Of a DNA stretch of 53,115 nt, positions 35,601 through 53,115 are shown piece by piece. Origin of the DNA: an uncultured Rhodospirillales bacterium. GTDB taxonomy: Bacteria > Pseudomonadota > Alphaproteobacteria > CACIAM-22H2. The translations under genes and the position numbers were made by a program. The stretch is taken from the NCBI GenBank assembly GCA_903860935.1, contig CAIOSQ010000436.1:1-53115 (forward strand), written 5' to 3'. Under the pieces are notes generated by a model. The model was given only the letters and a program-made list of their open reading frames with translations, was not told where the DNA came from and made no database searches. The stretch's first letter is position 1. The number at the start of each line of letters is the position of its first letter.

Positions 35601-35706
35601 CCGTCGCGCGCTCGAACCGCTCAACCGAGGCCGTCGTGGTCCCGGCGACCGCCGCGCCCGCGACCGCGGCCGTCATCCCTGCGAATGCCCGTCGCCGCAT
35701 TATCAT
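32695..35706 (-). CDS. Large hypothetical protein with twin-arginine (Tat) signal; no family recognised
   Basis: 1003-aa ORF with balanced, Trp/Phe/Tyr/Asp-rich composition. The opposite-strand ORF 33244..35838 is Arg/Gly/Ala-rich shadow. The N-terminus is MIMRRRAFAGMTAAVAGAAVAGTTTA. Confidence 0.7.
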   Translation of the reverse strand: MIMRRRAFAGMTAAVAGAAVAGTTTASVERFERATVLRSAASGAHWVSPFGIPFRHGAFPAAWRGRLCARYPAGPGGAPLAIQAEQFRIRGDGTLIHCTAHVHLPAAYVAGTAVEIGFAPTEIVGRLLPPAPDWAALWRDDADFAVELSIWEPRIHWLAFDGQPVTGDEVELVFADALGEQSYRHRFNATHAWKTAHDSGRALFDHLAKRVTQDPAGRYRCYDPRHLPRREGRAGEANDDHFRPKYGNALVVNDLGHAFGLAAETARHGPRRSLAQAHASDRWNEAQGRYGLYIWPRWRPGDPEPYRLRVRLRRAAGSSLSVFAGRDGARSTDTLLEPINDPVPRRLWRARFAAGRPSPDSPWFDGRLLRQEERRAAFVAEDGAIHPHLEAWFRVSRAHDGRIVDRQVTVENPRCFAAARDHVHDARILVDGAPPAGFAAERWRDLHHGPWETWRWAAEKPAACCDAADFMRARLVFPWTRHPDEDHTAEMACKLRGADIDFERNETAALRWRGGRRVEDWSGLRRPVRATLNDPLYAGAWCFTGEGGARAELGVFSSWEWWFWSGDTLATWPSLEAQADNVFGARGFQLRDERAGGADALATPNLYARWDFAPHAGTTPRLGNPFGRPQQPDTKFHPLGQAHLLKRPFLPANSHLPSSGIYSAYLVRPEKCFFDKQEQYAWFCLVKTQSDVLLTRPRTGGSPGDRDHVVGYQVANGERSYAWPMREVLRAAFLHFEGHRRRSYWRRVAQDQANHFNLLCARTIWGAFHVRNLFDPGSDSWRAVPPLMPAGRISGPSAGHVRVMARLDAFKSAYVNMCAMHGMDLDAADFAPGIQRCLWQLHALEDAPPEAWFRLLGTPGGAIVLCRDLVARPAAGGGVELDSASGAWPIWGADDMRGLHAWLGAATRDPAVARALRVPASPAELDRDLREVGYSFVKQHQAGLHMLLRYHADPAIRARARRWIARIDAQWPGTTRIATAGDPARPLSKLFQQLDLIPEERIA

Positions 35707-39183: not shown

Positions 39184-40716
39184 TCACAGCTTCTTCCAGC
39201 CCTTCGGATCGACGCTCATCGGTCCGTCAGGGAAGTCGACCTCCATGCGCGCCGCACCGAACGGCACATCGGCGGCGACGATCGCGATGTCGCCGCTGTC
39301 CGGGTCGCGGACGCGATCGCCACGGCGGAACTGGACGATGCGGGCCGGTGCCTGCGGCTTCGTCGGCTTGGCCGCGGCCTTCGCAGAACTGGACACAGGC
39401 GTCGCGGCCGCGGGCGGTGTCGCGCGCGCACGCCGCTTCTCGTCGCGCGCGCCTGCGGCGGGCGCCGGGGTCTGCGGCTGCGCCGGCGAAGACGCCGGAC
39501 CGGGCCCATCGCGACGCGGCTTCCCGCGGCGGCCAGCCTCGCGACCGCCCTCGCGACCGCCCTCGGCAACGGAAGACCGATGTGCGGGCGCGGCCGATCG
39601 TGGCGGCGGCGCCGGCCTGGGCGGACGCGGCGTCGGTTCGAGGAGGCGTCGCTGGATCGTGGCACAGGCCTCCGCGGCATCCGCCGTCTCGAACAGCGCG
39701 ATCCATCCGAACGGCACCGCCAGATCGCCGCGCAGCGTCACCGCGCGCGTATCGCCGACGACCATCGTCTCGCGCCGCGCATGGTTCCAGCCCTGGCGGA
39801 GCCCCTCGATCGAGGCCGCCTCGAAATGCGCATAGCGGCCAAGGCGCAGCAGGATGGCGCGCCGTCCATCCTCGGTGGCCGGCTGCGCGGGCCACGGCGC
39901 GTCGGCGTGAAAGCGCGCGCGCTCCTGCTCCCAGCGCTGGCGGTGGAATGCGTCGCAGGCCGCCAGGAGCGCATCGAGGTCGAGCCCACCGCCATCCGGA
40001 CCGGCGGCGGCGGCGTTGGTCATCTCGAACCTCGTCCCCGCGCGAACCACCTCGGCATCCACCAGCATGTCCCGGGTGCGCCCGTCGCGTCGGCGGTTGA
40101 AGACCCGCTCGATCCGCGTACACACCCCATCGGGCATGCAATCCCCGACGCGCAGGAAACGGAACGGATCGCGCCGGCCCATGACCGCGTCCGGGGCATC
40201 GGCGAGACCCAGAAGCGCGGCCTGGACCTCGTCGGAGAGCCGCCCGGAACGTCCGCCGCGCCCGTCCTCGCGCGCCGCGATCCGCCGCAGATCGCCGAGC
40301 ATTGGCTGGGCGCGCGCGCTCAGCAGCGCGGTGCGCAGCGCCCCCTTGACCGTGCTGCCGGGCAGGCAGGGCCGTCCACCGCTGCGCGCGAACAGGACCA
40401 CGCGGCCGGGCCGGGCGGGGCTGGACAGCGCCTCGACGATCCCGGCGTGCGACGCAGCGCCGACCAGGATGCGCTCGAGCGCATGCTCCGGACGCATCGC
40501 GGCGTGCAGCACGTCCTGGGCGAGGCGAAGATCGCCACGCTCGACCGCCAGCGCGAAGCCGCGCCGCGCGGCGTCGTCGAGCGCCGCCATCACCGCCGCC
40601 GGCTCGAAGCGCACCAAGTCGTCGCCGTCGAGGACGAAGCATTCCGGCAGCCACGCCTCGGGATCCTCGACATGGACCGGGGTGAGGGCCACGGCATGGA
40701 ACAGCCGCGCGGTCAT
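39184..40716 (-). CDS. csm5: Type III RAMP protein Csm5-like, with a 151-aa C-terminal extension (low-complexity linker plus small domain)
   Basis: Internal ATG at 40716, overlapping the csm4 stop (ATGA): MTARLFHAVALTPVHV... RAMP motifs: LPGSTVKGALRTALL, DPFRFLRVGD and FGWIALFE. The tail starts at EPTPRPPRP. The first 216 aa of track ORF 39184..41364 are a shadow of csm4. Confidence 0.8.
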   Translation of the reverse strand: MTARLFHAVALTPVHVEDPEAWLPECFVLDGDDLVRFEPAAVMAALDDAARRGFALAVERGDLRLAQDVLHAAMRPEHALERILVGAASHAGIVEALSSPARPGRVVLFARSGGRPCLPGSTVKGALRTALLSARAQPMLGDLRRIAAREDGRGGRSGRLSDEVQAALLGLADAPDAVMGRRDPFRFLRVGDCMPDGVCTRIERVFNRRRDGRTRDMLVDAEVVRAGTRFEMTNAAAAGPDGGGLDLDALLAACDAFHRQRWEQERARFHADAPWPAQPATEDGRRAILLRLGRYAHFEAASIEGLRQGWNHARRETMVVGDTRAVTLRGDLAVPFGWIALFETADAAEACATIQRRLLEPTPRPPRPAPPPRSAAPAHRSSVAEGGREGGREAGRRGKPRRDGPGPASSPAQPQTPAPAAGARDEKRRARATPPAAATPVSSSAKAAAKPTKPQAPARIVQFRRGDRVRDPDSGDIAIVAADVPFGAARMEVDFPDGPMSVDPKGWKKL

Positions 40717-41648
40717 GGGTGGACGATCTCGCCGTAGCGGATCGCGACGTGCCGCGCATCGTGGCGCACCGCCTCGGCACCGGGATGAACACCCGCGAGA
40801 AGCGTGCCGAAGGGTCCGGCGCCCGTCGCGGCAAAGGTCGCACCGGGCTCCGCGAGCAGGATCGCGTGCTTCCAGGGCCGCGTGCCGTCGCCCGATGCGG
40901 CGGCACCCAGGCGGCCGGAATGGGTGACCAACCGATAGCGTGCGTCGCGCATCGCCGCGTCGATCGTCCCGTGCGACAGGCTCAGCCAGCGCGCGCCATC
41001 GGGGCCATCGAGTTCGGGCGCGGGGACGATCGAGTCGACCACGAACCGTCCGCGGCCCCAGCTGGCGCTGCGCCCGTAGCCCGTCTCGCCGACCGCGCCC
41101 AGAAGCGCCGCGAGCCGCGCGGGCGTCTCGACGCTCCGCACATAGACATCGCGCCACGGCGCGATCTTGAAACTCCAATCCTCCTCGACGACGAAACCAG
41201 CGGCGTCGCGCACGCGCCCGGTCGACGCATCGACCGGCCCATGCGCGACCCGCACCGCATCGACGGTATCGGCACCATGCCAGGGCGAATCGACGAGTTT
41301 GTCGGCGAGAAAGACAGGATCCAGGCGCAGGCGCAGCGCGGCAAGGTCGGCCGCGCGGATCCATGGGCGGCGCGCCCGCGCCTTCGCCGCGTCGGCATCC
41401 GCCTGGCCCTGTGGGATACGCGGCGGCGGCGGTGCCAGCAACGGGCGCGGCAGCAGGCCTTCGGGAAAGCCGTCGGAAAAGATCGTCGGCGCCGTGTCCT
41501 GCGCCGCAAGCCAGCCCTGCAGGGACGCCGCGCCCTCGGCCTCGCGCAGCGCCCAGCAGACATGGCCGAACAGCGTGCCGGAGACGAGGCGCGTCCCCAG
41601 CGGCGCCGTCAGCCGCAGCCGGATGCGCGCGAGCGGCGGCAGGATCAC
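40713..41648 (-). CDS. csm4: Type III RAMP protein Csm4-like (Cas5 group)
   Basis: GTG at 41648 overlaps the csm3 stop (GTGA). Contains ARIRLRLTAP...SGTLFGHVCWAL, FSDGFPEGLLPRP, and the G-rich loop GETGYGRSASWGRGRF. Confidence 0.75.
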   Translation of the reverse strand: MILPPLARIRLRLTAPLGTRLVSGTLFGHVCWALREAEGAASLQGWLAAQDTAPTIFSDGFPEGLLPRPLLAPPPPRIPQGQADADAAKARARRPWIRAADLAALRLRLDPVFLADKLVDSPWHGADTVDAVRVAHGPVDASTGRVRDAAGFVVEEDWSFKIAPWRDVYVRSVETPARLAALLGAVGETGYGRSASWGRGRFVVDSIVPAPELDGPDGARWLSLSHGTIDAAMRDARYRLVTHSGRLGAAASGDGTRPWKHAILLAEPGATFAATGAGPFGTLLAGVHPGAEAVRHDARHVAIRYGEIVHP

Positions 41649-42403
41649 GCCACCCCCAGCGTCACGATCGTCGGCGCCTCGGCGCGATCGAAGCGCGCGA
41701 CGCGGAAGCCATCGCCCAGCGGGACCGCCGTCCCGCGGAGATCGCGGAAGACCAGATCCTCGAACCGGATCCGCCCATAGCCGCGCGATCCCGAGCCGCC
41801 CAGCGCGTCCTGTTCGAGCAGCGACAATCCGGCCAGCAGCCAGTTGAGGCATTGCGCATCACGCGCGCCGCCGTCGCCGGTGTCGTAGACGCGGAACACG
41901 AACTCGGCGTCGAAGAGCGCACCGGCCGAGACACGCTCGGTATGCCGCGGCGCCGACCGGTCATGCGCCTTGCCGGCGATGCGGTCGATCGCGATCTCGC
42001 CCTTCTCTTCGGTCAGCGGCCAGCCGCGCGCAAAGGCGCGCGCGCGCCAGGCGGGGTCGAGCGTCGCGTCGCGCACGATCAGCCGCGTCGGCCCGCCGCT
42101 CCAGACGCCATCGCCGGTCGGCGCCCCGAAGATGCGCAGAACCGGATCGGCGGGATCAAGACCCTCGCCGGCCGCGCCCTTTCCGACCCGCTCGAACGCC
42201 CAGTCGAGCAGGAAGCGCAGGCGCCCCTTGAGGCTGGACCCCGGAATATAGGGATCCTCGCCGACCGGCTGGCGGACGACCGGCGTGTCGCTGCCGCCGG
42301 CACCGATGCCCGTTCCGGCCGGACCGGCTCCGATATGGAGCCCGGAGAGCAGGCGGATCCTGCCGGTGACGAACACGCGCCCGAGCAGCCTGATGTCGTT
42401 CAT
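41645..42403 (-). CDS. csm3: Type III backbone RAMP Csm3 (Cas7 group)
   Basis: MNDIRLLGRVFVTGRIRLLSGLHIGAG...GGSDTPVVRQ...YIPGSSLKGRLRFLL...TEEKGEIAIDR...LGGSGSRGYGRIRFE. ATG 42403 is preceded by GAAGGGG. An alternative GTG at 42418 overlaps the csm2 stop. Confidence 0.88.
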   Translation of the reverse strand: MNDIRLLGRVFVTGRIRLLSGLHIGAGPAGTGIGAGGSDTPVVRQPVGEDPYIPGSSLKGRLRFLLDWAFERVGKGAAGEGLDPADPVLRIFGAPTGDGVWSGGPTRLIVRDATLDPAWRARAFARGWPLTEEKGEIAIDRIAGKAHDRSAPRHTERVSAGALFDAEFVFRVYDTGDGGARDAQCLNWLLAGLSLLEQDALGGSGSRGYGRIRFEDLVFRDLRGTAVPLGDGFRVARFDRAEAPTIVTLGVA

Positions 42404-42414
42404 CCCTGACCCCT

Positions 42415-43038
42415 TCACGCCTTGCGTTCGTAGAACCGGTGATAGGCGACCACGGCCTCGAAGATCCGTCGGAACGCCCCGAGGTCATGGGCGTCCTGGA
42501 CCGCCGCCGCGTGATCGACGAAGAACTGCAGCAATTCATGCGGGAAATTCTCGGCCTTCCCGCGGCGGCGGAACGCATGTGCGGCCCTCGCCTTCATGAG
42601 CACCATATGCGCCTGGATCGCCGCCGGATCGGGATCCCCATCCGGCGGCACGCGCCGCTCGATCAGGCCGACCTCGTCGTAGAAGCGCCGCATGAGCGAG
42701 GCGGGCACCGCGGCACAGGCACGCGCCAGCGCGTCGGCGCGATCCTCGAGCAAGTCGCGGCGGATCGCGGCACGCGCCTCGTCGGTGAAGTAGCGGGGCG
42801 GATTGGCCCGCGGCAGCGCCGGCAGATCGGGACGCGGCGGACCTCCGCCCTCGCGGCGTGCGCCATCGCGCGGCGCCGTGTCGCGCGGAGGTCCGCCACG
42901 GGGAGCGCCGTCTCGGGGCGCGCCGTCTCGGGGAGCACCGTCGCGGGGGCCACCGCCGGCCGGACGCGGACCGCGGCCGGGCGGCTTGCCCGGCGGGCGC
43001 TGCCTGCCGCCGGATCCATTCTGTGGGTTCGATGCCAT
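42415..43038 (-). CDS. csm2: Type III small subunit Csm2-like (Cas11), with a ~85-aa Gly/Pro/Arg-rich N-terminal extension
   Basis: The C-terminal helical part (SLMRRFYDEVGLIERR...VLMKARAAHAFRRRGK...ELLQFFVDHAAAV...FRRIFEAVVAYHRFY) matches the Csm2 pattern. ATG 43038 has AGGAGG 6 nt upstream. Confidence 0.75.
   Translation of the reverse strand: MASNPQNGSGGRQRPPGKPPGRGPRPAGGGPRDGAPRDGAPRDGAPRGGPPRDTAPRDGARREGGGPPRPDLPALPRANPPRYFTDEARAAIRRDLLEDRADALARACAAVPASLMRRFYDEVGLIERRVPPDGDPDPAAIQAHMVLMKARAAHAFRRRGKAENFPHELLQFFVDHAAAVQDAHDLGAFRRIFEAVVAYHRFYERKA
42859..42948 (-). repeat. Six tandem 15-nt units encoding PRDGA-type pentapeptides inside csm2
   Basis: The reverse complement reads ccc cgc gac ggt gct / ccc cga gac ggc gcg / ccc cga gac ggc gct / ccc cgt ggc gga cct / ccg cgc gac acg gcg / ccg cgc gat ggc gca. 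This translates to PRDGA PRDGA PRDGA PRGGP PRDTA PRDGA. Confidence 0.85.
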
Positions 43039-43044
43039 GGCCAG

Positions 43045-43050
43045 CCTCCT
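43045..43050 (-). promoter_or_regulatory. Shine-Dalgarno AGGAGG for csm2, in the 14-nt gap after the cas10 stop
   Basis: Plus strand cctcct at 43045-43050. ATG at 43038-43036. cas10 TGA at 43055-43053. Confidence 0.6.
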
Positions 43051-43052
43051 GT

Positions 43053-45428
43053 TCAACGCGTCCGCAGCAGCGCGATGGCGAGCGCGACCTCGGCGCCGTC
43101 CGGCGCCGCAAGTCTGGTGGCGACGAGCCCGCCCCCAACCAATCCATCGAAGAAGACGAGTGCCTCCGCATCGTCACGCGCGACATGGCGGCTCAGGCAG
43201 CGCGCCCAGCGCACGCGCCAATCCGCCGCCTCGAGCGCCATCGCGCTGGTCGCGCCGTCGCCCTCGGCGCGGCGGCGCAGGCGTGCGATGCCGAGGCACG
43301 CCTCAAGAAATCGCGCGGACACGCGACGCGCGCGGCGCATCTCGTCGATCCGACCCGCGTGGTCGAGCGCCGCGCGCAACGCCGGCCAGGACAGCGGCGC
43401 ACAGCCCGCGACCGCGATCCGGTCGCGCCCGGCCGCCTTCGCCGCCTCCACCCGCGACCCCACGCGGCGAAGCGCCGCCGGCAAGGCGTCCGGCCGTTCG
43501 CACAGTTCGACCGCCGCCGACAACGTCAGGGCGGGATTGCCGCCGACATGGGAACGGAACGCTTCCTCCAGCCGCTCGGCGACGCAGATGGTCGCATAGG
43601 CGGGTCCAGCGATCAGCAGATCGTCCCCGCCGGCATGGATCAGCGCGCACTCCGGGAATTCGCGCTCCAGTAGGTCCGGCACGGCCACGACGAAGAAGGC
43701 ATCGACCAGTCGCGACAGCGCGGCGATCCGGCCGAGGCTGCGGTCCTTGCCGAGCCAACGCCCGAAGATCTGGCCCAGCCGGTCCATGTCCGCGCGCAGA
43801 ACCGCGAGCGGACCGCGCGTCGGGATGGCGCCACGCCGCGGCAGCAGGCGCGGCACCACCGGCATGCCCGCCATTTCCGGGGTATCGATCCTCCAGCCGC
43901 CACGCACGCGCTCCCACGCCTCGCCATCGCCGCCATGCAGCGGCGCGGTCATCGCCGCAAGGCTGAGCCCGCCGGGCAGACCGATCTCGCGCACCGCGCG
44001 CCCGGACGGCATGGACCCTTCGGTCCAGAGCGCGGCCCGGATCGTGGGCAGGATCGCGCCCAGCGCCACCTCGTCGTCGCACGCGGCGCAGCGGAACCGG
44101 CCATCCGCCGCGGCGCGAACCGCCGGACGAAAACCGCAGGCGGGGCAAGGCGTGGCCGTCGCCGCCTCGTCGGCGAGCACGCCGGTCGGAATGGTCGCAA
44201 GGCGCCGCAGCGCCGCGCCCTCGGCAGCGCGCTGCATGGCGCCCCAGCCGCGCTCGTACCCGCCCTGCATGAGGTCGGCGGCGGACATCGCCGGCGCCGC
44301 GGCAAGGTCGATCGACACGTCACCGCGATGGCGGGCGCAGGCCCAGAGATCGAGATCACGGCGCACGCCGTCGAGCCGCGCCTCCAGATCCGGCAGATCC
44401 GGCGCGAGCAGCACGAAGCGTCCGCCGGCGAGGACCAGCTCGCAATAGGCGGGCAGGTCGAGCGCGCGGCAGACCAGGAAGGACGCCGCCCCCAGCGCGG
44501 CCTCCATCAGGAGGGACCGGGCCTGGAGCCGGCGCACGGCATCCGGCGCCGACAGCGCCTCCGGCCCGACGCGCTCCAGCGTCCGCGCGCATCCGGAGAG
44601 GTCGCCGACGACGAAACGGAACTTGCGCGAGGCACGGTCGCGGATGCGCGCCTCGTCGCCGAGCTCGCCGCGCGCCGCGTGGAAGCCGTGGAGACAGGCC
44701 GCGACCGCCGCGACGCTGCGCGCATGCTCGTGGAGGGAGACCTCGGGCTGGTCGTGCGGCGAGGACGGGATCGCCCAGGTCAGCCGCTCCGAAAGCGCCA
44801 GAAGCGCGCGATGGAACATCGCGGCGTCGCTCGCGCCGGCGCAGAGATCCGTGAAGCCTGCGACGTAATCCGGCCATAGCCGCTTGCAGGCGATCGCCTG
44901 CGCCGCCTCGCCCGCCGGGCCGGGCGCCAGCGCATCGGCGCGCGCCGCGGTGGCGACATGGAAGCGCGGATCCTGCGGTGGCCCGCCGAAGGTCAGCGCC
45001 GGAAACAGCGACCGCAGCGCGAGACCACGGAAGCTCGACGCCCCGCCGGGATCGCGGTCCTCGGCCTCTTCGTCGCGCGGCTTGCGCTCGAGCCCCGCGG
45101 CGATGCGGTTGGCCTCCGCGACAAGCCAGTCGCATGCGTCACGCGGATTATGGTGGCCGGCGGCGGCCGCGCGTACCGCGGCGAGGCGCATGCCGGCGGG
45201 AAGCACCGTGCCCGCCTCCTCCAGCGCGGCAAAGAATGCGTCGGTCCACAACACGTGCCAATGCGAGGAGCGACCGAAGAAGCCGGGAAGCACCTCCGGC
45301 GCGCGCGCCATGACGGCGGCACCGAGATCGGTGTTGCTGCGATGCGCGCGCTGCATGAACTTCCCGACATCGTGCAGGAAGGCGCCGAGCGCCGCCTCGT
45401 CGCGCGAGGGCGGTCCGTCGAAACTCAT
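43053..45428 (-). CDS. cas10: Cas10/Csm1 large subunit with HD nuclease motif and GGDD cyclase motif
   Basis: Internal ATG at 45428: MSFDGPPSRDEAALGAFLHDVGKF (HD at 45374-45369). Also AGHHNP, SLHEHARSVAAVAACL, FVVGDLSGCARTL, LQARSLLME, GGRFVLLAP, and the Zn-ribbon CPACG...CAACD. The palm-2 region has LAVLRADMDRLGQIF, SRLVDAFF and IHAGGDDLLIAG (GGDD at 43631-43620), followed by LTLSAAVE...EAAKAAGRDRIAV. Confidence 0.9.
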   Translation of the reverse strand: MSFDGPPSRDEAALGAFLHDVGKFMQRAHRSNTDLGAAVMARAPEVLPGFFGRSSHWHVLWTDAFFAALEEAGTVLPAGMRLAAVRAAAAGHHNPRDACDWLVAEANRIAAGLERKPRDEEAEDRDPGGASSFRGLALRSLFPALTFGGPPQDPRFHVATAARADALAPGPAGEAAQAIACKRLWPDYVAGFTDLCAGASDAAMFHRALLALSERLTWAIPSSPHDQPEVSLHEHARSVAAVAACLHGFHAARGELGDEARIRDRASRKFRFVVGDLSGCARTLERVGPEALSAPDAVRRLQARSLLMEAALGAASFLVCRALDLPAYCELVLAGGRFVLLAPDLPDLEARLDGVRRDLDLWACARHRGDVSIDLAAAPAMSAADLMQGGYERGWGAMQRAAEGAALRRLATIPTGVLADEAATATPCPACGFRPAVRAAADGRFRCAACDDEVALGAILPTIRAALWTEGSMPSGRAVREIGLPGGLSLAAMTAPLHGGDGEAWERVRGGWRIDTPEMAGMPVVPRLLPRRGAIPTRGPLAVLRADMDRLGQIFGRWLGKDRSLGRIAALSRLVDAFFVVAVPDLLEREFPECALIHAGGDDLLIAGPAYATICVAERLEEAFRSHVGGNPALTLSAAVELCERPDALPAALRRVGSRVEAAKAAGRDRIAVAGCAPLSWPALRAALDHAGRIDEMRRARRVSARFLEACLGIARLRRRAEGDGATSAMALEAADWRVRWARCLSRHVARDDAEALVFFDGLVGGGLVATRLAAPDGAEVALAIALLRTR

Positions 45429-45543
45429 CGTCGCATGTCGCTCGCGCGCTCGCCGTCCGTCTTCATGGGCGCACCGCTTAGCGCCTCCGCGCCCGCGACG
45501 CAAACCCGCCGGCGCCGGTACTCACGCGGTGCGGCACACCGCG

Positions 45544-46332
45544 TCAGGCCCACGCGCCCTTCGCCATCAGCCCGCCATCGACGTTGACGTAGCTGCCGGT
45601 CATGAACGACGCCTTGTCGCTCGCCAGGAACAGCACGACATGCGCGACCTCCTCGGGCTGTCCGATACGGTCGAGCGGATGGCACGCGGCCCAGGCGTCG
45701 CGCAGCCCGTCTATCGTCTGTCCCGACGCGGCGGCGGCCTCCGCGACCAGGGGCGTCTCGATGGTGCCGGGGTTGACCGCCAGCACGCGGATCCCGTCCT
45801 TGGCGTATTCCAGCGCCAGCTGCCGGGTCAGCGAGAGGTCGCCGCCCTTGCTCGCGGCATAGGGCGCGACGCCCAGCGCCGATTGCAGCCCCTGGACGCT
45901 GGCGATGTTGACGATCACGCCACCGCCGCGCGCCGTCATCTGGGGGACGCAGTATTTCGTCATCAGGAAGCGGCTCTTGAGATTGACGGCGATGATCCGG
46001 TCCCAGACGTCTTCGGACAATTCATGGGCCGGCTTGTAGCTGTCGGCCGGCTGGATGCCGACATTGTTGCACAGGATGTCGACGCCACCGAACGCGGCGA
46101 CCGCGCGCGCGACCAGGTCCTGGCACTCCGTGGCCCGGCTGACATCCGCCGCGACGAAAAGCAGCCGGCCCTCCGCACCCTGCGCGATCCGCATCGTCTC
46201 CGCCCCCGCCGCGACGTCGATATCGGCGCAGACCGTGTTCGCCCCGGCATGCGCGAAGCCCAGCGTGATGGCGCGCCCGATCCCCTTCGCGCCGCCGGTG
46301 ACGATGACGGTCTTGCCGGTGAACTCGCCCAT
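45544..46332 (-). CDS. Classical short-chain dehydrogenase/reductase (FabG / glucose-1-dehydrogenase-like), located between cas6 and cas10
   Basis: ATG at 46332 (MGEFTGKTVIVTGGAKGIGRAI). Contains NNVG, SVQG...YAASKGG (S-YxxxK) and PGTIETP. Confidence 0.88.
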   Translation of the reverse strand: MGEFTGKTVIVTGGAKGIGRAITLGFAHAGANTVCADIDVAAGAETMRIAQGAEGRLLFVAADVSRATECQDLVARAVAAFGGVDILCNNVGIQPADSYKPAHELSEDVWDRIIAVNLKSRFLMTKYCVPQMTARGGGVIVNIASVQGLQSALGVAPYAASKGGDLSLTRQLALEYAKDGIRVLAVNPGTIETPLVAEAAAASGQTIDGLRDAWAACHPLDRIGQPEEVAHVVLFLASDKASFMTGSYVNVDGGLMAKGAWA

Positions 46333-46418
46333 GCTCCGATCTCCCAATCTAGATGTCGCCATGCTCCCGGGCGGCGGCCGTGGACGTCAACCGTCGCGAA
46401 GATGCGCGCGCCGCCGCG

Positions 46419-47378
46419 TCACCGCGGCGCCGCCGTCGCGATCCGGAACGCGCCCAGCCCCATGCTCGCGCCCTTGCCCGCGCCGACCCATTGCGCGAGA
46501 TCCAGCCAGGGCCCGAGCGATCCGGCGTCCGGCCCGAGATCGATTCGGCAGGTGCCGACGAGACCGCCCATCTTCATCGTCTCGCGCTGGCGCGCCGAGA
46601 AGCGGGTCTGGTCCTGCCAGCCGAGATCGGCCTCCTCCAGCCGCGCCGTGTCGGCCGCGCGCTTGAGCGCCCCGTAGTCGGCTGCGATCGGACCGCCGCC
46701 ATGGAGGGCCGCGAGCGTCGAGACGCGACGGATCGCGGCGCCGATCAGATGTGCCGGACGGAACGCCTGCGGCGTCACCAGATCGCCGCCCAGGCGCAGG
46801 CGCAACGGTGTGCGCAGCGACGCCACGACATGCCGGCCGAGCGGCACCGCCTGCGGGCTGCGCGGCGCCACCGGCAGACACTGAGCCCCGCCGTCATGGA
46901 CGAGCGTCCCGGTCGCCGCGTCGAGCCCGTCGAGCGCCTCCACACGGGTCAACTGGAGCTGCGCGCGCGCCGGCCCGAGCCCCGCCAGCCCGGCCTCCGC
47001 CATCGCGCGCACGACATAGACAAGCCGCGCATTGGCGGTGCCCACCAGGGTTAGGACCGTCGACACCGTGTCGCCGGCGACGAACACGGTGTCGCCCCGA
47101 TGCTCCGGCGCGAAGACATAGGGCACCGTCACAAGATCGATCCCCGAGGGCCGCGCCGCCTGCGCGGGCACATGCCCGTCGAACAGCGCGGGATAGGGGC
47201 ACCCGTCGATCAGCGGACAGCCCACGCAGGGCCGCAACCGCATCGCACAGACGACCCGCTTCAGCGCATGCCCGAACACGCCGCGCCACGCCGACCCTCC
47301 GAAGGCCCGCAACACGCCGTCCCCGAGCGCCCTGTACGCGAATCGATAGCGGACCAGCGGCAACGAAATCCCGTCCAT
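46419..47378 (-). CDS. cas6: Cas6-family RAMP endoribonuclease (Cys-rich N-terminal type, DUF2276-like)
   Basis: MDGISLPLVRYRFAYRALGDGVLRAFGGSAWRGVFGHALKRVVCAMRLRPCVGCPLIDGCPYPALFDG...VPYVFAP..., with the C-terminal G-rich loop WVGAGKGASMGLGAFRI. Start at ATG 47378; an alternative lies at 47399. Confidence 0.75.
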   Translation of the reverse strand: MDGISLPLVRYRFAYRALGDGVLRAFGGSAWRGVFGHALKRVVCAMRLRPCVGCPLIDGCPYPALFDGHVPAQAARPSGIDLVTVPYVFAPEHRGDTVFVAGDTVSTVLTLVGTANARLVYVVRAMAEAGLAGLGPARAQLQLTRVEALDGLDAATGTLVHDGGAQCLPVAPRSPQAVPLGRHVVASLRTPLRLRLGGDLVTPQAFRPAHLIGAAIRRVSTLAALHGGGPIAADYGALKRAADTARLEEADLGWQDQTRFSARQRETMKMGGLVGTCRIDLGPDAGSLGPWLDLAQWVGAGKGASMGLGAFRIATAAPR

Positions 47379-47547: not shown

Positions 47548-48102
47548 ATGCGCTTTCTGCCGACTTCCCTGCCCGGCGTCGTCGTCGTCGAGACACCGCG
47601 CCTCGAAGACGAGCGTGGCAGCTTCGAGCGCAGCTATTGCCGCGACAGCTTCGCGGCCGCTGGCCTCCCGGATCTCGGGGTCCAATGCAACATCTCCGGC
47701 AATCGCAGCCGCCTCACGCTGCGCGGCATGCATTTCCAGGCGGCGCCGGAGCCGGATGCCAAGCTGGTGCGGTGCCTCTCGGGCCGGCTTTTCGATGTCG
47801 CGGTCGACATCCGTCCCGACTCGCCGACACACAGGCAGTGGACGGCGGTCGAACTGGCGGCCGGAGATGGCCGCGCGCTGTTCGTGCCCGCCGGCTTCGC
47901 CCATGGCTTCCTGACGCTCGCCGACGACACGACGGTCTTCTACATGATGGGGGCGTCCTATCGCGCGGAGCTGTCCCGCGGATTTCGCTGGGACGATCCC
48001 GAGGTCGCGATCGCGTGGCCGGATACGCCAATCGTCGTCTCCGCGCGCGATCGGGCCCTGCCGCCGCTCGCCGCGATTGCCGTCGTGGACCTCGCGCGAT
48101 GA
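47548..48102 (+). CDS. NDP-4-dehydro-6-deoxyhexose 3,5-epimerase (RfbC-like cupin)
   Basis: Internal ATG at 47548 ([30 protein letters not shown]). Contains [23 protein letters not shown] and [11 protein letters not shown]. Confidence 0.85.
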
Positions 48103-49019
48103 GGCGCCTGCTCGTGACCGGAGCCACGGGCTTCGTCGGGCGCGCGGTGCTCGATGCGCTGGCGCGCGCGCCGGTGGCCACCGTCGCCCTCGCGCGCCAT
48201 GCGCCGGAGGATGCCGGCCATCGCGTGCGCTGGATCGCTGCCGACCTCCTCGATCCTGCGGCATGCGACCGTGCCCTCGCCGAGGCGGAGTGCGACACCT
48301 GCCTGCATCTCGCCTGGGATGTCGGGCCGGGCTACTGGACCGCGCCGACCAATCTCGACTGGCTCGCGGCCAGCGCGACGCTGCTCCGACGCTTCACCGA
48401 ACGCGGCGGCAGGCGCTTCGTCGCGGCCGGCACCTGCGCCGAATACGACTGGTCGATGGCGGACGCCGCGCCATTGCGCGAGGACGCCCCGCGGCGGCCG
48501 GCGACGCTCTACGGCGCCGCCAAGAGCGCGTTCTGGGACGTGACGGAGCGCTTCGCAGCCGCGGTCGGCATCGAGGCCGCCTGGGGCATCGTGTTCCACG
48601 TCGTCGGACCGGGCGAGCGACCCGGTCGGCTCCTGCCCTCGATCGTCACGGCGCTCGACAAGGGAGAACCGGCGGCGTGCACGCCCGGCACGCAGATCCA
48701 GGACCCGATCGACGTGCGCGATCTCGGTGCCGCCTTCGCAGCCCTCGCCCTCTCCGATCTGCGCGGGCGCGTCAATCTCGGCGCCGGCGCCCCGCTGTCA
48801 GTCGCCGACCTGTCGCAGCGCATCGCCGCGTGCTGCGGTCGGCCGGACCTGCTGCGCCTCGGCGCGCTGCCGCCGCGTGGGGGAGAGCCTGCACGGCTGG
48901 TGCCGGATCTGACGCGGATGCACGCCGAACTCGGCTTCGTGCCGCGCCATGGTCGCGACGCGAGCATCGCCGACGCCGTAGCTTGGCAGCGCGCATATGC
49001 GAGCCCGTCATGCGCCTGA
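48099..49019 (+). CDS. NAD-dependent epimerase/dehydratase or sugar reductase (extended SDR)
   Basis: ATG at 48099 overlaps the upstream stop (ATGA). Contains [13 protein letters not shown] and LYGAAK (YxxxK). Confidence 0.8.
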
Positions 49020-49576
49020 TCCCTCGTCTGCTGCGCCGCAAGCGCGCCACGCGCCTTCCCGGCGATGTCACGATCGGACGCCACAGCTATGGCGTGTCGT
49101 CCCGCAACCTCGTCCGTCCAACCGCCGCGGCCCCGATCGAAATCGGGAGCTTCTGCTCGATCGGTCCGGAGGTGTTGATCTTCGGACAGGCTGACCACCC
49201 GACCCACCTGCCCTCCACCTATCCTTTCCGCACGCTGCTCTTCGATCCGGCCGCGGGCAACCGCGATGCCGTGACCCGCGGCGGCGTCGTCATCGGCAGC
49301 GACGTGTGGATCGGCGCGCGTGCGATGATCCTCTCCGGCGTCACGATCGGCCATGGCGCGGTGATCGGCGCCGGCGCCGTCGTGACGCGCGACGTGCCGC
49401 CCTACGCAATCGCCGTCGGCAATCCGGCGCGCGTGGCGCGTCATCGCTTCGCGCCGGAGATCGTCGCGCGCCTCCTCGCGCTGCGCTGGTGGGAGTGGCC
49501 CGACGAACGCATCCGCGACCTGGAGGAGGCGTTCTACGGCCCTGTGGAGACGTTCCTGGAGCGCAGCGGCGGATGA
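49010..49576 (+). CDS. Hexapeptide-repeat (left-handed beta-helix) acetyltransferase, xenobiotic/CatB-like
   Basis: ATG at 49010 ([28 protein letters not shown]). Contains [50 protein letters not shown] and the C-terminal WWEWP. Confidence 0.82.
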
Positions 49577-50433
49577 GCGCCGGGCCGCAGGTCGCGATCG
49601 GGCTGCCGGTCTACAACGGCGCCGCGTTCCTGGACGAAGCGATGGCCTCGCTCTGCGCCCAGGATTTCGCGGATCTGCGCATCGTCGTCTCGGACAACGC
49701 GTCCACCGACGCGACGCCGGATATCCTCTCCGCCTGGGCCGCGCGCGATCCACGCATCGACCTGCACCGGCAGCGGGAGAACATCGGCATGATCGCGAAT
49801 TTCGCCTTCGTGCGGCACACCGCGCAGGCCCGGTGGTTCATGCTCGCGGCGCATGACGACCGCTGGTCGCCCAATTTCGTGTCGACGCTCCACACGGCGG
49901 CGACGCGCGAGCCCGGCTGCCTGCTCGCCGTCCCGCAGGTCGTGAAGACGACCATCGCCGGGGACGAGGATCTTCGCTTCGCCGTTCCCGCGGCCCTCGC
50001 CGCAGCGCATGGCCTCGCGCGCCGGCTTGCGCTTCTGCGCTGGGCTCAGAGCGGCTGGATCTACGGGCTGATCGACCGCGCGGCGCTGCTGCGCGCGCAA
50101 GAGGCGACCGAGCGCTTCGGCCATGCCTGGGGCAACGAGTTCATCACGCTGCTGCCGTTCCTGCTCGACGGGCGCGTGGCGGCGGCGAACGAGGCCATCT
50201 ACTACCAGCGCCAGACCCCGCTTTCCGAGGCGCGGTACAAACCGCGCATCCTCGCCGACCAGAGGCGCCTCTATCGCGATTTCCTGCGCGAGGCGCTGCG
50301 CCTGCTCGGCGAGTCCGGCCTGCCCGCGGCGCAGCGCGCGGCTTTGCTGCCGGCGCTGCTGCGCTATTCCGGACGCCATGCCTGGAAGCTGCGGCGCCTC
50401 GTCCTGGCCAGCCTCGGCCTGCGCCGGCCCTGA
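49573..50433 (+). CDS. GT2-family glycosyltransferase
   Basis: ATG at 49573 overlaps the upstream stop. Contains [35 protein letters not shown] and AAHDD. Confidence 0.8.
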
Positions 50434-50461
50434 CCGGCCCTGACCGGCCCAGGCGCCGGCC

Positions 50462-51697
50462 TCAGCCGATGACGCGCGTGGACGGGATCGCGACGACGAA
50501 ACGCCCGCCCCAGTCGCGCACATGCGCCATCGACGCGACGATCTCGTCGGCGATGTTCCAGGGAAGGATCAGCACGTAGTCGGGGCGTGTGATGGCGATG
50601 CGATCGGGCGCATGGACGGGCAGCCGCGATCCCGGCAGCAACCGCCCCTGCTTGTGGGGATTGAGATCGACGACATAGTCGATCAGGTCGGTCCCGATCC
50701 CGCAGTGATTGAGCAGCGTGTTGCCCTTCGCCGCGGCGCCATAGGCGATGACGCTGCGGCCCTCCGCACGCGCCTGATGCAGGAAGGCGAGCAGCGATCT
50801 GCGTACCGCGTCGACCTTTGCCTGGAAGCCGGAATAGGCCTCGACGCGATCGAGCCCAGCGGCGCGCTCGGCGGCCCGCACGGCGGCGAGGCCGGGCTCG
50901 GCAGGCCGCTTCGCGCCGTCGATGCGGCACGCGAGAACGCGCAGGCTGCCGCCATGCGTGGGCAGCGTCTCGACATCGAAGACGCGCAGACCGTGGCGCT
51001 CGAAGACCGCCTCCACCGCGAGCAGCGAGAAATAGCAGTAGTGCTCGTGATAGATCGTGTCGAACTGCACCTCGCGGATGAGGTTCAGGAGATGCGGAAA
51101 CTCGACCGACAGCACGCCGGCGGGCTTGAGTGCGCGCGCGAGACCGGCGACGAAGTCATTGAGGTCGGGCACATGCGCCAGCACGTTGTTGGCGACCAGC
51201 AGATCCGCCGCGCGCCCGGACGCCACGAGGTCATCGGCCGCCGCACGACCGAAGAACCGCACCTCGACCGGGATGCCCAGCGCACGGGCCGCCTCGGCGA
51301 CATTCGCGGCCGGCTCGATCCCCAGCGACGGAATGCCGGCGGCGACGAAATGCCGGAGCAGATATCCGTCGTTGCTCGCGACCTCGACGACCTGGCTCGC
51401 GGATGTCAGTCCGAAGCGCCGCGCCGCCATCTCAGCGAAGCGCCTGGCATGCGCGACCCAGGAGGACGAGTAGGACGAGAAATACGCATATTCGCCGAAG
51501 ATCGTCTCCGGCGGCGTGACCGCCTCGACCTGGACCAGCAGGCAGGCGTCGCACACGCGCGCATGCAGCGGAAAGGTCGGATCGGGCATCGCCGCGGCAT
51601 GCGGCGGCACGTAGCTGTTGGCAAGCGGCGTGCGGCCGAGATCGACGAAGCTGCGCGTCAGCGGCGCGGCGCAGGATCGGCAGGCGAGAGACGTCAT
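50462..51697 (-). CDS. SAM-dependent NDP-hexose C-methyltransferase (TylCIII-like; N-terminal Zn-ribbon plus class I MTase plus C-terminal domain)
   Basis: Internal ATG at 51697 (MTSLACRSCAAPLTRSFVDLGRTPLANSY...CDACLLVQ). Contains VVEVASNDGYLL, YHEHYCYFS, GAAAKGNTLLN, DLNPHKQGRLLPGS and LILPWN. Its ATG overlaps the rfbG stop. The remaining N-terminal portion of track ORF 50462..52900 is a shadow. Confidence 0.85.
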   Translation of the reverse strand: MTSLACRSCAAPLTRSFVDLGRTPLANSYVPPHAAAMPDPTFPLHARVCDACLLVQVEAVTPPETIFGEYAYFSSYSSSWVAHARRFAEMAARRFGLTSASQVVEVASNDGYLLRHFVAAGIPSLGIEPAANVAEAARALGIPVEVRFFGRAAADDLVASGRAADLLVANNVLAHVPDLNDFVAGLARALKPAGVLSVEFPHLLNLIREVQFDTIYHEHYCYFSLLAVEAVFERHGLRVFDVETLPTHGGSLRVLACRIDGAKRPAEPGLAAVRAAERAAGLDRVEAYSGFQAKVDAVRRSLLAFLHQARAEGRSVIAYGAAAKGNTLLNHCGIGTDLIDYVVDLNPHKQGRLLPGSRLPVHAPDRIAITRPDYVLILPWNIADEIVASMAHVRDWGGRFVVAIPSTRVIG

Positions 51698-52758: not shown

Positions 52759-53115
52759 CGCGGCAACCAGGGCGGCCGGCCGCTCTCCCACAATTCCTCG
52801 AGCAGCAGCTTTTCGCGCAGCGTGTCCATCGGCTGCCAGAACCCTGTGTGGCGAAACGCGGCCAGCTGACCGGATGCCGCGAGCCGCTCGAGCGGCGCAC
52901 GCTCCCAGACGCTCGCGTCGCCCTCGATCAGGTCGAGCACGGACGGCTCGAGGACGAAGAAACCGCCATTGATGAAGCCGCTATCGGCCTGCGTCTTTTC
53001 GCGGAAGGCGACCACACGGTCGCCATCGAGCTCGGCGGCGCCGAAGCGCGCGGGCGGGCGGACCACGGTCATCGTCGCGGCGACGCGCTGCGCGCGATGG
53101 AAGGCGATGGTCGCG
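52755..53115 (-). CDS. rfbF: Glucose-1-phosphate cytidylyltransferase, partial (N-terminus beyond the right window edge)
   Basis: The track ORF starts at Met 53072, but the frame stays open to base 53114. It reads ATIAFHRAQRVAATMTVVRPPARFGAAELD...FREKTQADSGFINGGFFVLEP...GFWQPMDTLREK, which corresponds to the middle and C-terminal parts of RfbF. Confidence 0.85.
   Translation of the reverse strand, partial: ATIAFHRAQRVAATMTVVRPPARFGAAELDGDRVVAFREKTQADSGFINGGFFVLEPSVLDLIEGDASVWERAPLERLAASGQLAAFRHTGFWQPMDTLREKLLLEELWESGRPPWLPR

Follow-up and report, generated by a model that had tools for sequence, protein, structure and literature searches.

The canonical type III-A systems (such as the Csm systems of S. 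epidermidis, S. thermophilus, L. lactis, and T. onnurineus) comprise cas6 and the subunits Cas10 and Csm2 to Csm5, with a Cas10 built of HD, Palm1, zinc-finger, Palm2, and D4 domains and a catalytic Asp in Csm3. The Csm system of Lactobacillus delbrueckii (LdCsm) is of type III-A but neither makes cOA nor carries csm6 (PMC7214462, PMC8287949), and activation of its DNase needs the Palm2 DxD motif and the zinc finger (PMC7214462). It has its own 16-spacer array, an intact HD site, and a robust HD DNase. In types III-G and III-H, inactivation of the Palm cyclase occurs alongside the loss of CARF/SAVED proteins, and there is no adaptation module; type III-G also has no array in the locus, and its crRNA is proposed to be supplied in trans. 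Both types have their own subunit families (Csx26, diverged Cas11, and Cmr-type subunits) and are missing the Cas7 catalytic Asp.

The locus described here, a genuine type III-A effector gene set that selection maintains in a freshwater alphaproteobacterium, lies in a complete contig of 53,115 bp (the whole stretch analyzed, hereafter the window) of an incomplete metagenome-assembled genome (MAG). It shares the subunits, gene order, cas6, Cas10 domains, and Csm3 Asp of the canonical systems, but lacks an array, cas1/cas2, and a csm6/CARF gene, carries a short-chain dehydrogenase/reductase (SDR) gene between cas6 and cas10, has Asn at the HD-site Asp80 equivalent, and has lost Palm1 SGIQ and the adenine-stacking Tyr. 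As in LdCsm, a type III-A backbone is found without a CARF effector and, as the sequence suggests, without cOA signalling; the Palm2 DxD and zinc finger are conserved, and the GGDD Asp pair appears dispensable in both. Unlike LdCsm, the locus has no array and has Asn in place of one HD-site Asp. It follows the evolutionary trend of types III-G and III-H, but its subunits are Csm2-5 of the plain kind, Csm3 retains its Asp, and cyclase erosion is incomplete (GGDD in the window strain). The nearest full-locus relatives (for example, Vineibacter terrae CC-CFT640, L010; L011; L024) show 42-49% identity in Cas6 and 40-44% in Cas10, and share the order of Csm2-5 and a Csm5 C-terminal extension, whereas they carry the CARF genes Cas_NE0113 and Cas02710, cas1/cas2, and arrays with 36-37-nt repeats, and keep Palm1 SGIQ and YAGGDD. 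Their HD motif reads ED in L010 and L024 and HD in L011.

The original prediction, made from the DNA letters, had named seven co-directional minus-strand genes encoding Cas6, SDR, Cas10, Csm2, Csm3, Csm4, and Csm5; profile HMMs identified all seven in place, and the Cas calls were upheld by NCBIfam, Pfam, and PADLOC. Cas6 (46419..47378; 319 aa with the ATG at 47378 as start, in a longer ORF reaching 47489) scored 263 bits in PADLOC and 48.7 bits with PF10040, and the L001 gene identical to it matched PF27225 and PF10040. It has a Cys-rich AF_1859_N-type domain at the N-terminus and a C-terminal G-rich loop, GAGKGASMGLGAF. Cas10/Csm1 (43053..45428; 791 aa) matched TIGR02578 with 353 bits. Csm2/Cas11 (42415..43038; 207 aa) begins with an Arg/Pro-rich low-complexity extension of ~90 aa with PRDGA repeats, and TRF detected a period-15 repeat at 42899-42948 within the gene; the PF03750 match (56 bits) covers residues 102-211 of a 213-aa translation whose start precedes the chosen ATG by 18 nt. 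Csm3/Cas7 (41645..42403; 252 aa; TIGR02582, 177.5 bits) keeps the catalytic Asp (GGSD39TPVV, aligned to ToCsm3 GGIDNPVI) and is probably the RNA-cleaving backbone subunit, with its predicted RNase site intact. Csm4/Cas5 (40713..41648; 311 aa) and Csm5 (39184..40716; 510 aa) matched PADLOC profiles with 154 and 40 bits, respectively, and scored below the NCBIfam cutoffs (TIGR01903, 49.6 bits, just below 55; TIGR01899, 32.5 bits, below 38.3). Csm5 is composed of a RAMP core of ~345 aa, a Pro/Arg/Ala-rich linker of ~110 aa, and a C-terminal domain of ~50 aa, which is conserved in L009 and the outgroup L004. The tight gene junctions noted earlier were likewise found: a 14-nt gap with AGGAGG between cas10 and csm2, an 11-nt gap between csm2 and csm3, a GTGA overlap of csm3 and csm4, and an ATGA overlap of csm4 and csm5.

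A survey of the cas6-SDR-cas10 arrangement recovered the same layout in L001, L006-L009, L074, and L159-L161, and placed the locus in a small clade of freshwater Alphaproteobacteria, made up of unclassified alphaproteobacterial MAGs and one Acetobacteraceae MAG, with the gene order cas6-SDR-(MFS/SpeE)-cas10...csm5. Genes for a Mo-oxidoreductase and a sulfatase border the locus, and the same genes (90-96% aa identity) border it in L159, L074, and L009. The setting is a housekeeping site, not a mobile island, and the clade locus appears to have been inherited vertically at one chromosomal site. In relatives at ~45% Cas10 identity, the locus comprises cas6, cas10-csm5, two CARF genes (one after cas6 and another after csm5), cas1/cas2, and an array; L002 and L003 read cas6-Cas_NE0113-cas10...csm5-Cas02710, and L005 has cas1/cas2. 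Four queried accessory families, Cas_NE0113 being an example, match most of the 77 relatives' loci. Of the relatives' loci, 26 span at least 20 kb, and 20 of these have an array within 10 kb; a single repeat family is conserved across the array-bearing relatives.

The original prediction had also reported no repeat-spacer array in the window, and TRF, a direct-repeat search, and Rfam agreed in returning nothing array-like. A k-mer array finder gave no array in the window, versus arrays in 38 of the 77 relatives' loci; the relatives' repeat family (...GACCYGAWGAARAAGGGATYAAGAC) was absent from the window, and no guide-RNA candidate or repeat-like sequence was found in or near the locus. Scans with Pfam, NCBIfam, and PADLOC, which took in essentially all other genes of the window, confirmed that cas1/cas2, RT, CARF/SAVED, transposase, and integrase genes are missing from the 53 kb, the remaining genes having housekeeping, transport, and polysaccharide functions only. 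Searching the window by tblastn with the relatives' CARF, Cas1, and Cas2 proteins was negative. The contig of a sister strain (146.7 kb) extends 5.9 kb further beyond cas6, and this stretch was array-free. Arrays were found in none of the clade loci, and CARF or cas1/cas2 homologues in none of the five searched (window, L001, L008, L009, and L074).

The SDR (45544..46332, minus strand; 262 aa) is a classical enzyme of its family (PF13561, 211 bits; NF005559, 243 bits) with intact TGxxxGxG, NNxG, and S-Y-K motifs; its closest solved structure is BacC (5itv), and it had no match in PADLOC. Homologues with 79-81% identity occur in Caldilineaceae MAGs outside CRISPR contexts. Its gene occupies the position of the CARF gene Cas_NE0113 in L002, L003, and L005, and holds this place between cas6 and cas10 in every clade lineage, diverging at rates similar to those of the cas genes (aa identity of 80%, compared with 90-96% in the genes on either side of the locus), a combination that a pure passenger model does not predict. 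The 27-nt stretch at 45512..45538 has no counterpart in the junction alignment with L001; in sister strains, this place is taken by a 2.3-kb segment that encodes a fused MFS/spermidine-synthase protein (MFS/SpeE) of 751 aa (NF037959, 86 bits), and blastn of L001 against the window gave two blocks with a 2296-nt gap between them. The MFS/SpeE gene is carried by L001, L008, L074, L006, L159, L160, and L161, and is missing from the window strain and the L009/L007 lineage, both of which keep the cas genes; in the window strain, its absence is a precise strain-level deletion. About 55 homologues with 58-72% identity were found in non-CRISPR contexts. Both the SDR and the MFS/SpeE gene appear to be ordinary cellular genes.

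The 86-nt spacer between cas6 and the SDR gene (46333..46418) contains an element, GGTTGACG, common to all clade members (window, L001, L008, L074, and L009 compared), which is a possible promoter of the SDR gene itself. Additionally, TTGCGTC-N14-GCTAAGCG (45477..45503, minus strand), ~45 nt upstream of the cas10 start, was found by regex and alignment in every clade member, with or without a preceding MFS gene. A generic sigma-70 scan made no call at this element, which we take to resemble the Caulobacter-type TTGACGS-N10-14-GCTANAWC consensus.

The HD and GGDD motifs originally read in Cas10 are literally there, but alignments showed that further catalytic residues are altered. The HD site of the window Cas10 consists of H19, D20, N107, and H235, and N107 replaces the catalytic Asp (LlCsm1 Asp80; PMC8964682) in all seven clade members, where relatives have Asp or Glu. 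Because one of the four catalytic residues is Asn, HD activity is uncertain, and the fixed N107 may mean a dead DNase, leaving RNA cleavage only. Palm1 reads GDLSGCAR in the window versus GDLSGIQ in relatives, SGIQ being gone clade-wide, and the adenine-stacking Tyr572 (LlCsm1 numbering) is His or Gln across the clade, so that H598-AGGDD603 stands in the window in place of Y-AGGDD, with the Tyr-to-His change adjoining GGDD. Both SGIQ and this Tyr are near-universal in the ~77 relatives' loci wherever the motif scan found them. The window Cas10 retains Asp253, Ser277, DxD, and GGDD (for the roles of the cyclase residues in LlCsm1 numbering, see PMC11417356), with DxD at residues 546-548, and the zinc finger (C428/C431/C447/C450). 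Four of seven clade relatives (L074, L006, L009, and L007) have GGDA (Asp577 to Ala) and Ser277 to Ala, and L009 and L007 additionally have Asp253 to Ser. Among the Cas10 domains, dN/dS is highest in Palm2 and D4. These residue states suggest that the Cas10 active sites are eroding across the clade, the cyclase being probably dead in the GGDA sister lineages and questionable in the window strain. GGDA, Ser277Ala, and Asp253Ser in the sister lineages indicate that the cyclase is not under selection in the clade; the Palm cyclase pocket may be free of selection because the cOA sensors are gone. The missing ancillary effector fits this clade-wide erosion, although the window Cas10 could remain active as a cyclase, its signal acting on an effector whose gene lies at another place.

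The original prediction offered three options for such a locus: crRNA supply in trans from a distant array, a domesticated or guide-independent derivative, and decay. The last, a dead locus heading to pseudogenisation, would agree with the loss of the array, adaptation, and effector genes, with the eroded Cas10 residues, and with a cas-gene dN/dS about twice that of neighboring genes (0.06-0.16 in the flanking housekeeping genes). However, decay is refuted at the gene level, because dN/dS is 0.16-0.35 in every cas gene (0.23-0.32 in cas6 and ~0.2 in csm3) and the 7.4 kb contain no stop or frameshift in any of at least four lineages that are dS ~0.5-0.7 apart; translational coupling is also preserved, and so is the promoter-like motif ahead of cas10. 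A decaying remnant is thus disfavored and highly improbable. The same purifying selection, acting although every clade contig lacks an array, cas1/cas2, and CARF genes, is what a repurposed or guide-poor Csm complex would show, one that has ceased to be an immune effector and serves a host function such as RNA-guided or RNA-binding transcript control via Cas6 and Csm3 only. The clade-wide N107, the eroding cyclase residues, and stable inheritance at one housekeeping site outside any mobile island point the same way. Nevertheless, we consider repurposing unlikely: the retained Cas6 points to processing of a repeat-containing RNA, type III loci that lack an array and borrow crRNAs are well known (PMC12669027), the locus offers no candidate guide RNA, and the cas genes show a dN 3-4 times as high as the genes flanking the locus, a pattern usual in defence genes.

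An ordinary signalling type III-A system, with its array, cas1/cas2, and CARF effector on other contigs and an active cyclase in the window Cas10, seems somewhat less probable still. The source MAG is incomplete, all metal-binding cyclase residues are kept in the window Cas10 (PMC11417356), and for 133 loci that lack an effector, in-trans signalling between loci has been suggested (PMC11229360); on the other hand, the sister lineages at the same site carry GGDA, Ser277Ala, and Asp253Ser, the active variants that PMC11229360 lists do not include GGDA, and the window Cas10 too has lost the adenine-stacking Tyr and Palm1 SGIQ. We are more doubtful again that the SDR, with MFS/SpeE where present, is a new ancillary component that has taken over the role of the CARF effector, despite its location exactly in the relatives' CARF slot, its retention at cas-like divergence in at least seven clade loci, and the strong constraint on the MFS/SpeE copy inside the locus (dN/dS 0.08-0.17). 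Spermidine-synthase domains bind adenosyl-sulfonium ligands. By analogy with CorA, a possibility is that a SAM-AMP-like adenosyl signal is sensed by the SAM-fold spermidine-synthase domain of the membrane protein, SAM-AMP signalling to a membrane effector having a precedent (PMC10600005). Yet CARF, SAVED, and other known sensor domains are missing from both proteins, neither has a meaningful PADLOC match, homologues very close to each of them occur in non-CRISPR contexts, and a literature search gave no paper tying either family to Cas10. MFS/SpeE also stands beside GGDA Cas10s (L074 and L006) and therefore does not correlate with a live Palm site, its loss in the window strain and the L009/L007 lineage left the cas genes in place, and the SDR gene and cas10 have separate conserved promoter-like elements.

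The reading we prefer, and hold to be moderately probable, is a reductively evolved, cOA-independent type III-A interference module that is supplied with crRNAs by an array at another place in the genome. Of the three options originally offered, in-trans supply from a distant array is best supported, though we infer it, because Cas6 is under purifying selection, relatives share one conserved repeat family, and type III loci that borrow crRNAs have a published precedent (PMC12669027). The ancestor would have carried cas6, the Cas_NE0113 CARF gene, cas10-csm2-csm3-csm4-csm5, the Cas02710 CARF gene, cas1/cas2, and an array. In the clade, everything past csm5 would have been lost and the CARF gene between cas6 and cas10 swapped for a cassette of SDR and fused MFS/spermidine-synthase genes, the latter being deleted later in the window strain, while purifying selection would have kept Cas6, the Csm complex with the Csm3 RNase site, and the zinc finger and DxD of Cas10. 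Cas6 would then process the pre-crRNA of the distant array, which is predicted to bear the ...AAGGGATYAAGAC repeat family, and the Csm complex would bind and cut complementary transcripts; any further response would come from the HD domain, without second messengers. The Csm locus is a rare reduced variant of the known type III-A system, not a new kind.

Seven co-directional genes on the minus strand were identified in the window, each of them backed by profile HMMs: csm5 (39184-40716; PADLOC Csm5, 40 bits; NCBIfam, 32.5 vs. a cutoff of 38.3), csm4 (40713-41648; PADLOC Csm4, 154 bits; NCBIfam, 49.6 vs. a cutoff of 55), csm3 (41645-42403; TIGR02582, 177.5 bits), csm2 (42415-43038; PF03750, 56 bits), cas10 encoding Csm1 (43053-45428; TIGR02578, 353 bits vs. 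a cutoff of 170; PF22335 and PF18211), a gene encoding a short-chain dehydrogenase/reductase (SDR, 45544-46332; PF13561, 211 bits; PF00106, 185 bits), and cas6 (46419-47378; PADLOC Cas6, 263 bits). The assignment of Cas10, Csm2-5, and Cas6 made in the original prediction was upheld by TIGR, Pfam, and PADLOC profiles, and the gene junctions were as it had described them (cas10 TGA, 14 nt with AGGAGG, and ATG; an 11-nt gap; a GTGA overlap; and an ATGA overlap). In the profile search, Csm2 and Csm3 scored above the curated cutoffs and Csm4 and Csm5 slightly under the NCBIfam equivalog cutoffs; the latter two calls therefore rely on PADLOC and canonical gene order. The Cas10 had a Csm1-type domain architecture, and its profile was alignable to solved Csm1 chains. 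The catalytic Asp of Csm3 was kept (GGSD39TPVV, aligned to GGIDNPVI of Thermococcus onnurineus Csm3), and the G+C content of the window was 72%.

Additionally, two terminal regions of the Csm proteins were observed. The C-terminal part of Csm5 (39184-39700) consists of a Pro/Arg/Ala-rich linker of approximately 110 aa and a small domain of approximately 50 aa (IVQFRRGDRVRD...WKKL), which is conserved in the clade locus L009 and in the outgroup locus L004; in other relatives, its place is taken by another small domain. The N-terminus of Csm2 (42760-43038) carries an Arg/Pro-rich extension of approximately 90 aa with PRDGA repeats, the copy number of which is apparently variable between strains.

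The genes of the window were called by positional G+C, and essentially all of them were scanned with Pfam, NCBIfam, and PADLOC, which identified no cas1, cas2, RT, CARF, SAVED, transposase, or integrase gene. Searches by tblastn with CARF, Cas1, and Cas2 proteins from more distant loci (relatives) were also negative in the window. No array-like sequence was found in the window by Tandem Repeats Finder, direct-repeat search, or Rfam, nor any array by a k-mer array finder, which as a positive control recovered arrays in 38 of the 77 relatives' loci. The relatives' arrays share one 36-37-nt repeat family (...GACCYGAWGAARAAGGGATYAAGAC) that is not present in the window, where the best match was one 13-mer with two mismatches within csm3, at chance level; a search for solo or degenerate copies in the window and the clade loci gave nothing above chance. 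The absence of an array, cas1/cas2/RT, CARF/SAVED, and transposase or integrase genes from the 53 kb, as originally proposed, was thus borne out by repeat searches, HMM scans, and tblastn.

The window (53,115 bp) is a complete contig. A sister-strain contig (L159; 146.7 kb, 98-99% identical) extends the cas6 side by 5.9 kb, adding genes for an NTP-transferase, a molybdopterin oxidoreductase, and two sulfatases, and no array was found in this segment past the window edge. Together, these contigs are free of arrays for 39 kb downstream of csm5 and approximately 11 kb upstream of cas6. The remaining genes of the window encode queuosine enzymes, xanthine dehydrogenase, ABC transporters, PPK2, aldolase, an ATP-grasp protein, and two sugar/polysaccharide clusters. 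Between the polysaccharide gene cluster and PPK2 lies a Trp-rich ORF of 993 aa (32695-35676, minus strand) with a strong coding signal and no Pfam, NCBIfam, or PADLOC match. An imperfect 102-bp tandem repeat (2804-3049; 2.4 copies, 77% matches) sits in a TPR-repeat/glycosyltransferase-9 gene at the left contig end and most likely reflects the encoded TPR repeats.

Homologue and genome scans recovered both the relatives and a small clade to which the window locus belongs; the cas6-SDR-cas10 arrangement, proposed for survey across related genomes, was seen in this clade. The clade layout is invariably cas6-SDR-(MFS/SpeE)-cas10-csm2-5, in which MFS/SpeE is a fused MFS/spermidine-synthase gene. 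Besides the window and its near-identical sister contigs, the clade includes loci from an uncultured Acetobacteraceae MAG (L008; Cas10 identity of 93%), two Alphaproteobacteria MAGs (L074, 76%; L009, 72%), a run-assembly contig (L006, 74%), and a lake-metagenome contig (L007, 70%). L008, L074, and L009 belong to the MAGs CAYSUY01, JBIKLI01, and JBIKXN01, respectively, and a JGI 3300035703 bin that includes Ga0310140_0000239 also has the locus. The nearest loci outside the clade, such as that of Vineibacter terrae, showed Cas10 identities of 40-46%. The full layout of the relatives comprises cas6, the CARF gene Cas_NE0113, cas10-csm2-5, and the CARF gene Cas02710, with cas1/cas2 and an array; 26 of the relatives' loci span at least 20 kb, and an array was located within 10 kb in 20 of these. 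No clade locus contained an array, and no CARF or cas1/cas2 homologue was present in the five clade loci searched for them; as tblastn queries, Cas_NE0113 and Cas02710 of the relatives had no match in any clade locus searched and matched most relatives.

All three sub-lineages of the clade share a flank containing a Mo-oxidoreductase (90-91% identical) and a sulfatase (96% identical), indicating that the locus was vertically inherited at one site. The sole variable flank slot lies between the Mo-oxidoreductase and cas6 (47548-53115 in the window; 9450-15417 in L159; 4022-5661 in L074) and holds seven CDP/dTDP-sugar biosynthesis genes in the window lineage and three small genes in L074 (DUF6878, DUF6915, and one other), and is empty in L009. 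A module occupying two chromosomal contexts and mobile as a unit with the SDR was considered and rejected, since L159 has the same Mo-oxidoreductase/sulfatase flank 6 kb further out.

Pairwise Nei-Gojobori comparisons gave dN/dS values of 0.16-0.35 for cas6, cas10, and csm2-5, at a synonymous divergence of approximately 0.4-0.7, with no stops or frameshifts in the compared cas genes. Flanking housekeeping genes gave values of 0.06-0.16. The cas genes are thus clearly maintained, though under weaker constraint than the flanking genes, a pattern that is common for genes of defence systems.

The catalytic sites of the window Cas10 were located by transferring residue numbers of Lactococcus lactis Csm1 through the profile alignment to solved Csm1 chains. 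The HD site of this protein consists of His13, Asp14, Asp80, and His206 (PMC8964682), and its ATP sites include Asp253, Ser277, Asp281, Tyr304, Asp520, Ser546, Tyr572, and Asp577 (PMC11417356). In the window, H19, D20, and H235 were kept and N107 occupies the Asp80 position, leaving the HD nuclease site incomplete. This position is Asn in all seven clade members compared and Asp in the relatives with a findable motif, except for Glu in two. In the Palm domains of the window protein, Asp276 of GDLSG, Ser305, the DxD motif, and GGDD were kept, Tyr was replaced by His at position 598, and SGIQ was lost. The HD and GGDD motifs named in the original prediction are both literally in the sequence, but N107, the lost SGIQ, and the Tyr-to-His change do not fit an unaltered Cas10.

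The Palm1 motif GDLSGIQ is near-universal among the relatives; the clade versions are GDLSGCAR, GDLSGVAR, or GSLGGAEG. The Tyr stacking on ATP1 is His in the window and Gln in sister lineages. In L074, L006, L009, and L007, the residues equivalent to Ser277 and to the second Asp of GGDD were both replaced by Ala, the latter yielding GGDA, which is not included among the variants accepted as active (PMC11229360), and L009 and L007 additionally have Ser in place of Asp253. The dN/dS of Palm2 was among the highest of the Cas10 domains. By these residue changes and the Palm2 dN/dS, constraint on the cyclase is relaxed in all seven lineages, four of which have, as far as sequence can tell, a dead cyclase. 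The window strain keeps the metal ligands, and its cyclase activity is uncertain. The four-Cys zinc finger, the Palm2 DxD, and the catalytic Asp of Csm3 were conserved throughout the clade. Compared with the nearest relatives, 46 aa are missing ahead of Palm2; an inactivating deletion was considered and dropped, because the linker of the active T. onnurineus Csm1 is similar in length. Among the nearest relatives, many Cas10 proteins (L010, L012-L025, L038, L046, L055, L060, L063, and L085) have ED or QD instead of the HD dipeptide; the rest of their HD site (the H..H pair, HH, and the equivalents of Asp80 and His206) does not vary, and their loci carry CARF genes. In these proteins, the HD domain may serve a conserved function that does not need the canonical His.

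The SDR is of the classical type and aligned over its full length with its closest solved structure, BacC (5itv), with VTGGAKGIG, NNVG, and YAASKGG corresponding to the Rossmann TGxxxGxG, NNxG, and Ser-Tyr-Lys residues; it is apparently an intact oxidoreductase. No match of the SDR to defence families was found with PADLOC. Its homologues with 79-81% identity occur in unrelated contexts in MAGs of Caldilineaceae (Chloroflexota), and this cross-phylum identity suggests horizontal transfer. In each of the Caldilineaceae loci (L153 and L156-L158), a DUF3037 and HipA_2 pair and a GNAT gene come after the SDR, and L156-L158 also have a spermine-synthase-like gene at a distance of 3 kb from it.

The MFS/SpeE gene (751 aa; NF037959, 86 bits) was identified between the SDR and cas10 in L001, L159, L160, and L161 (98-99% nucleotide identity), L008, L074, and L006, and was absent from the window, L009, and L007. 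In the window, 27 nt (45512-45538) stand in place of the MFS/SpeE segment of L001 (7622-9917), indicating a clean, recent deletion in the window strain. Because L009 and L007 are also without the gene, it was probably lost twice. Approximately 55 homologues with 58-72% identity were found in metagenomes in a conserved non-CRISPR context. Given such close homologues outside CRISPR contexts, the SDR and MFS/SpeE are best read as ordinary cellular genes in place of a CARF gene, and literature searches gave no link of SDR or spermidine synthase to type III systems. Promoter-like elements conserved clade-wide were identified before cas10 (TTGCGTC-N14-GCTAAGCG; 45477-45503, minus strand) and before the SDR (GGTTGACG; within 46333-46418); a generic scan of the locus for sigma-70 promoters and terminators missed both and was otherwise uninformative. 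Since the SDR and cas10 are each preceded by such an element, cas6, the SDR, and cas10-csm5 are probably transcribed as three separate units.

Among known systems, the III-A system of Lactobacillus delbrueckii (LdCsm) has neither cOA (cyclic oligoadenylate-type second messenger) synthesis nor csm6, and the allosteric activation of its DNase needs the zinc finger and Palm2 DxD, the GGDD pair being dispensable (PMC7214462). Like LdCsm, the clade Cas10s retain the zinc finger and the Palm2 DxD. An active cyclase is predicted for about 92-97% of Cas10s, and cyclase domains have been reported to be near-ubiquitous in III-A (PMC11229360, PMC12669027); the clade is therefore uncommon, yet not a new kind. 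With III-G and III-H, which are reduced and cyclase-dead, it shares an evolutionary trend only (PMC12669027). Those subtypes are marked by Csx26 or a diverged Cas11 and by loss of the catalytic Asp of Cas7, whereas HMMs identify typical Csm2-5 subunits in the window and Csm3 keeps its Asp.

These results are best explained by a III-A module that has undergone reductive evolution and is independent of cOA. The Csm complex would still assemble and act as a crRNA-guided, RNA-cleaving effector, with crRNAs supplied from an array elsewhere in the same genome. Of the options originally put forward, such supply in trans is the most likely. Because the clade Cas6 proteins are 42-49% identical to Cas6s adjoining arrays of the AAGGGATYAAGAC-type repeat, the distant array is predicted to bear this repeat. 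Whether the HD domain would cut DNA is uncertain because of N107. A normal signalling system with its array and effectors on other contigs is quite improbable, as the sister lineages have apparently dead cyclases at the same locus. Decay of the genes, another of the original options, was refuted; with the observed dN/dS values and intact reading frames, a decaying remnant is highly improbable.

Other readings give the module a different output. We consider a repurposed or regulatory complex unlikely. It is very doubtful that the SDR and MFS/SpeE are new ancillary parts, since both have non-CRISPR homologues, the SDR and cas10 each have their own promoter-like element, gene presence is uncorrelated with the Palm-site state, and MFS/SpeE is deleted in the window strain. 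The same deletion and the roughly 55 non-CRISPR homologues, together with the lack of tracking of GGDD vs. GGDA, leave a low probability for MFS/SpeE as a SAM-AMP-type membrane effector. Also quite unlikely is that a Cas10 altered at both catalytic centres, with Csm and the CARF-replacing SDR long kept under purifying selection, has an output that is neither HD DNase nor cOA. If true, the clade would be a III-A derivative acting by another route, which may be pure RNA-guided RNA cleavage or regulation, or a new output with the SDR and the membrane MFS/SpeE.

Taken together, the locus is a new reduced III-A variant in which the loss of signalling has reached an intermediate stage. That ordinary metabolic genes have taken the place of a CARF gene calls for caution against regarding each gene found within a cas operon as an accessory factor. 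The clade represents a III-A system caught while losing cOA signalling: the CARF genes are gone, one lineage has intact cyclase residues and its sisters apparently dead ones, all lineages have a change at one catalytic residue of the HD site, and the whole effector is still under selection. It is an independent and recent parallel to the reductive evolution of III-G and III-H, and provides a natural series on which to see which Cas10 motifs stay necessary after signalling is lost.
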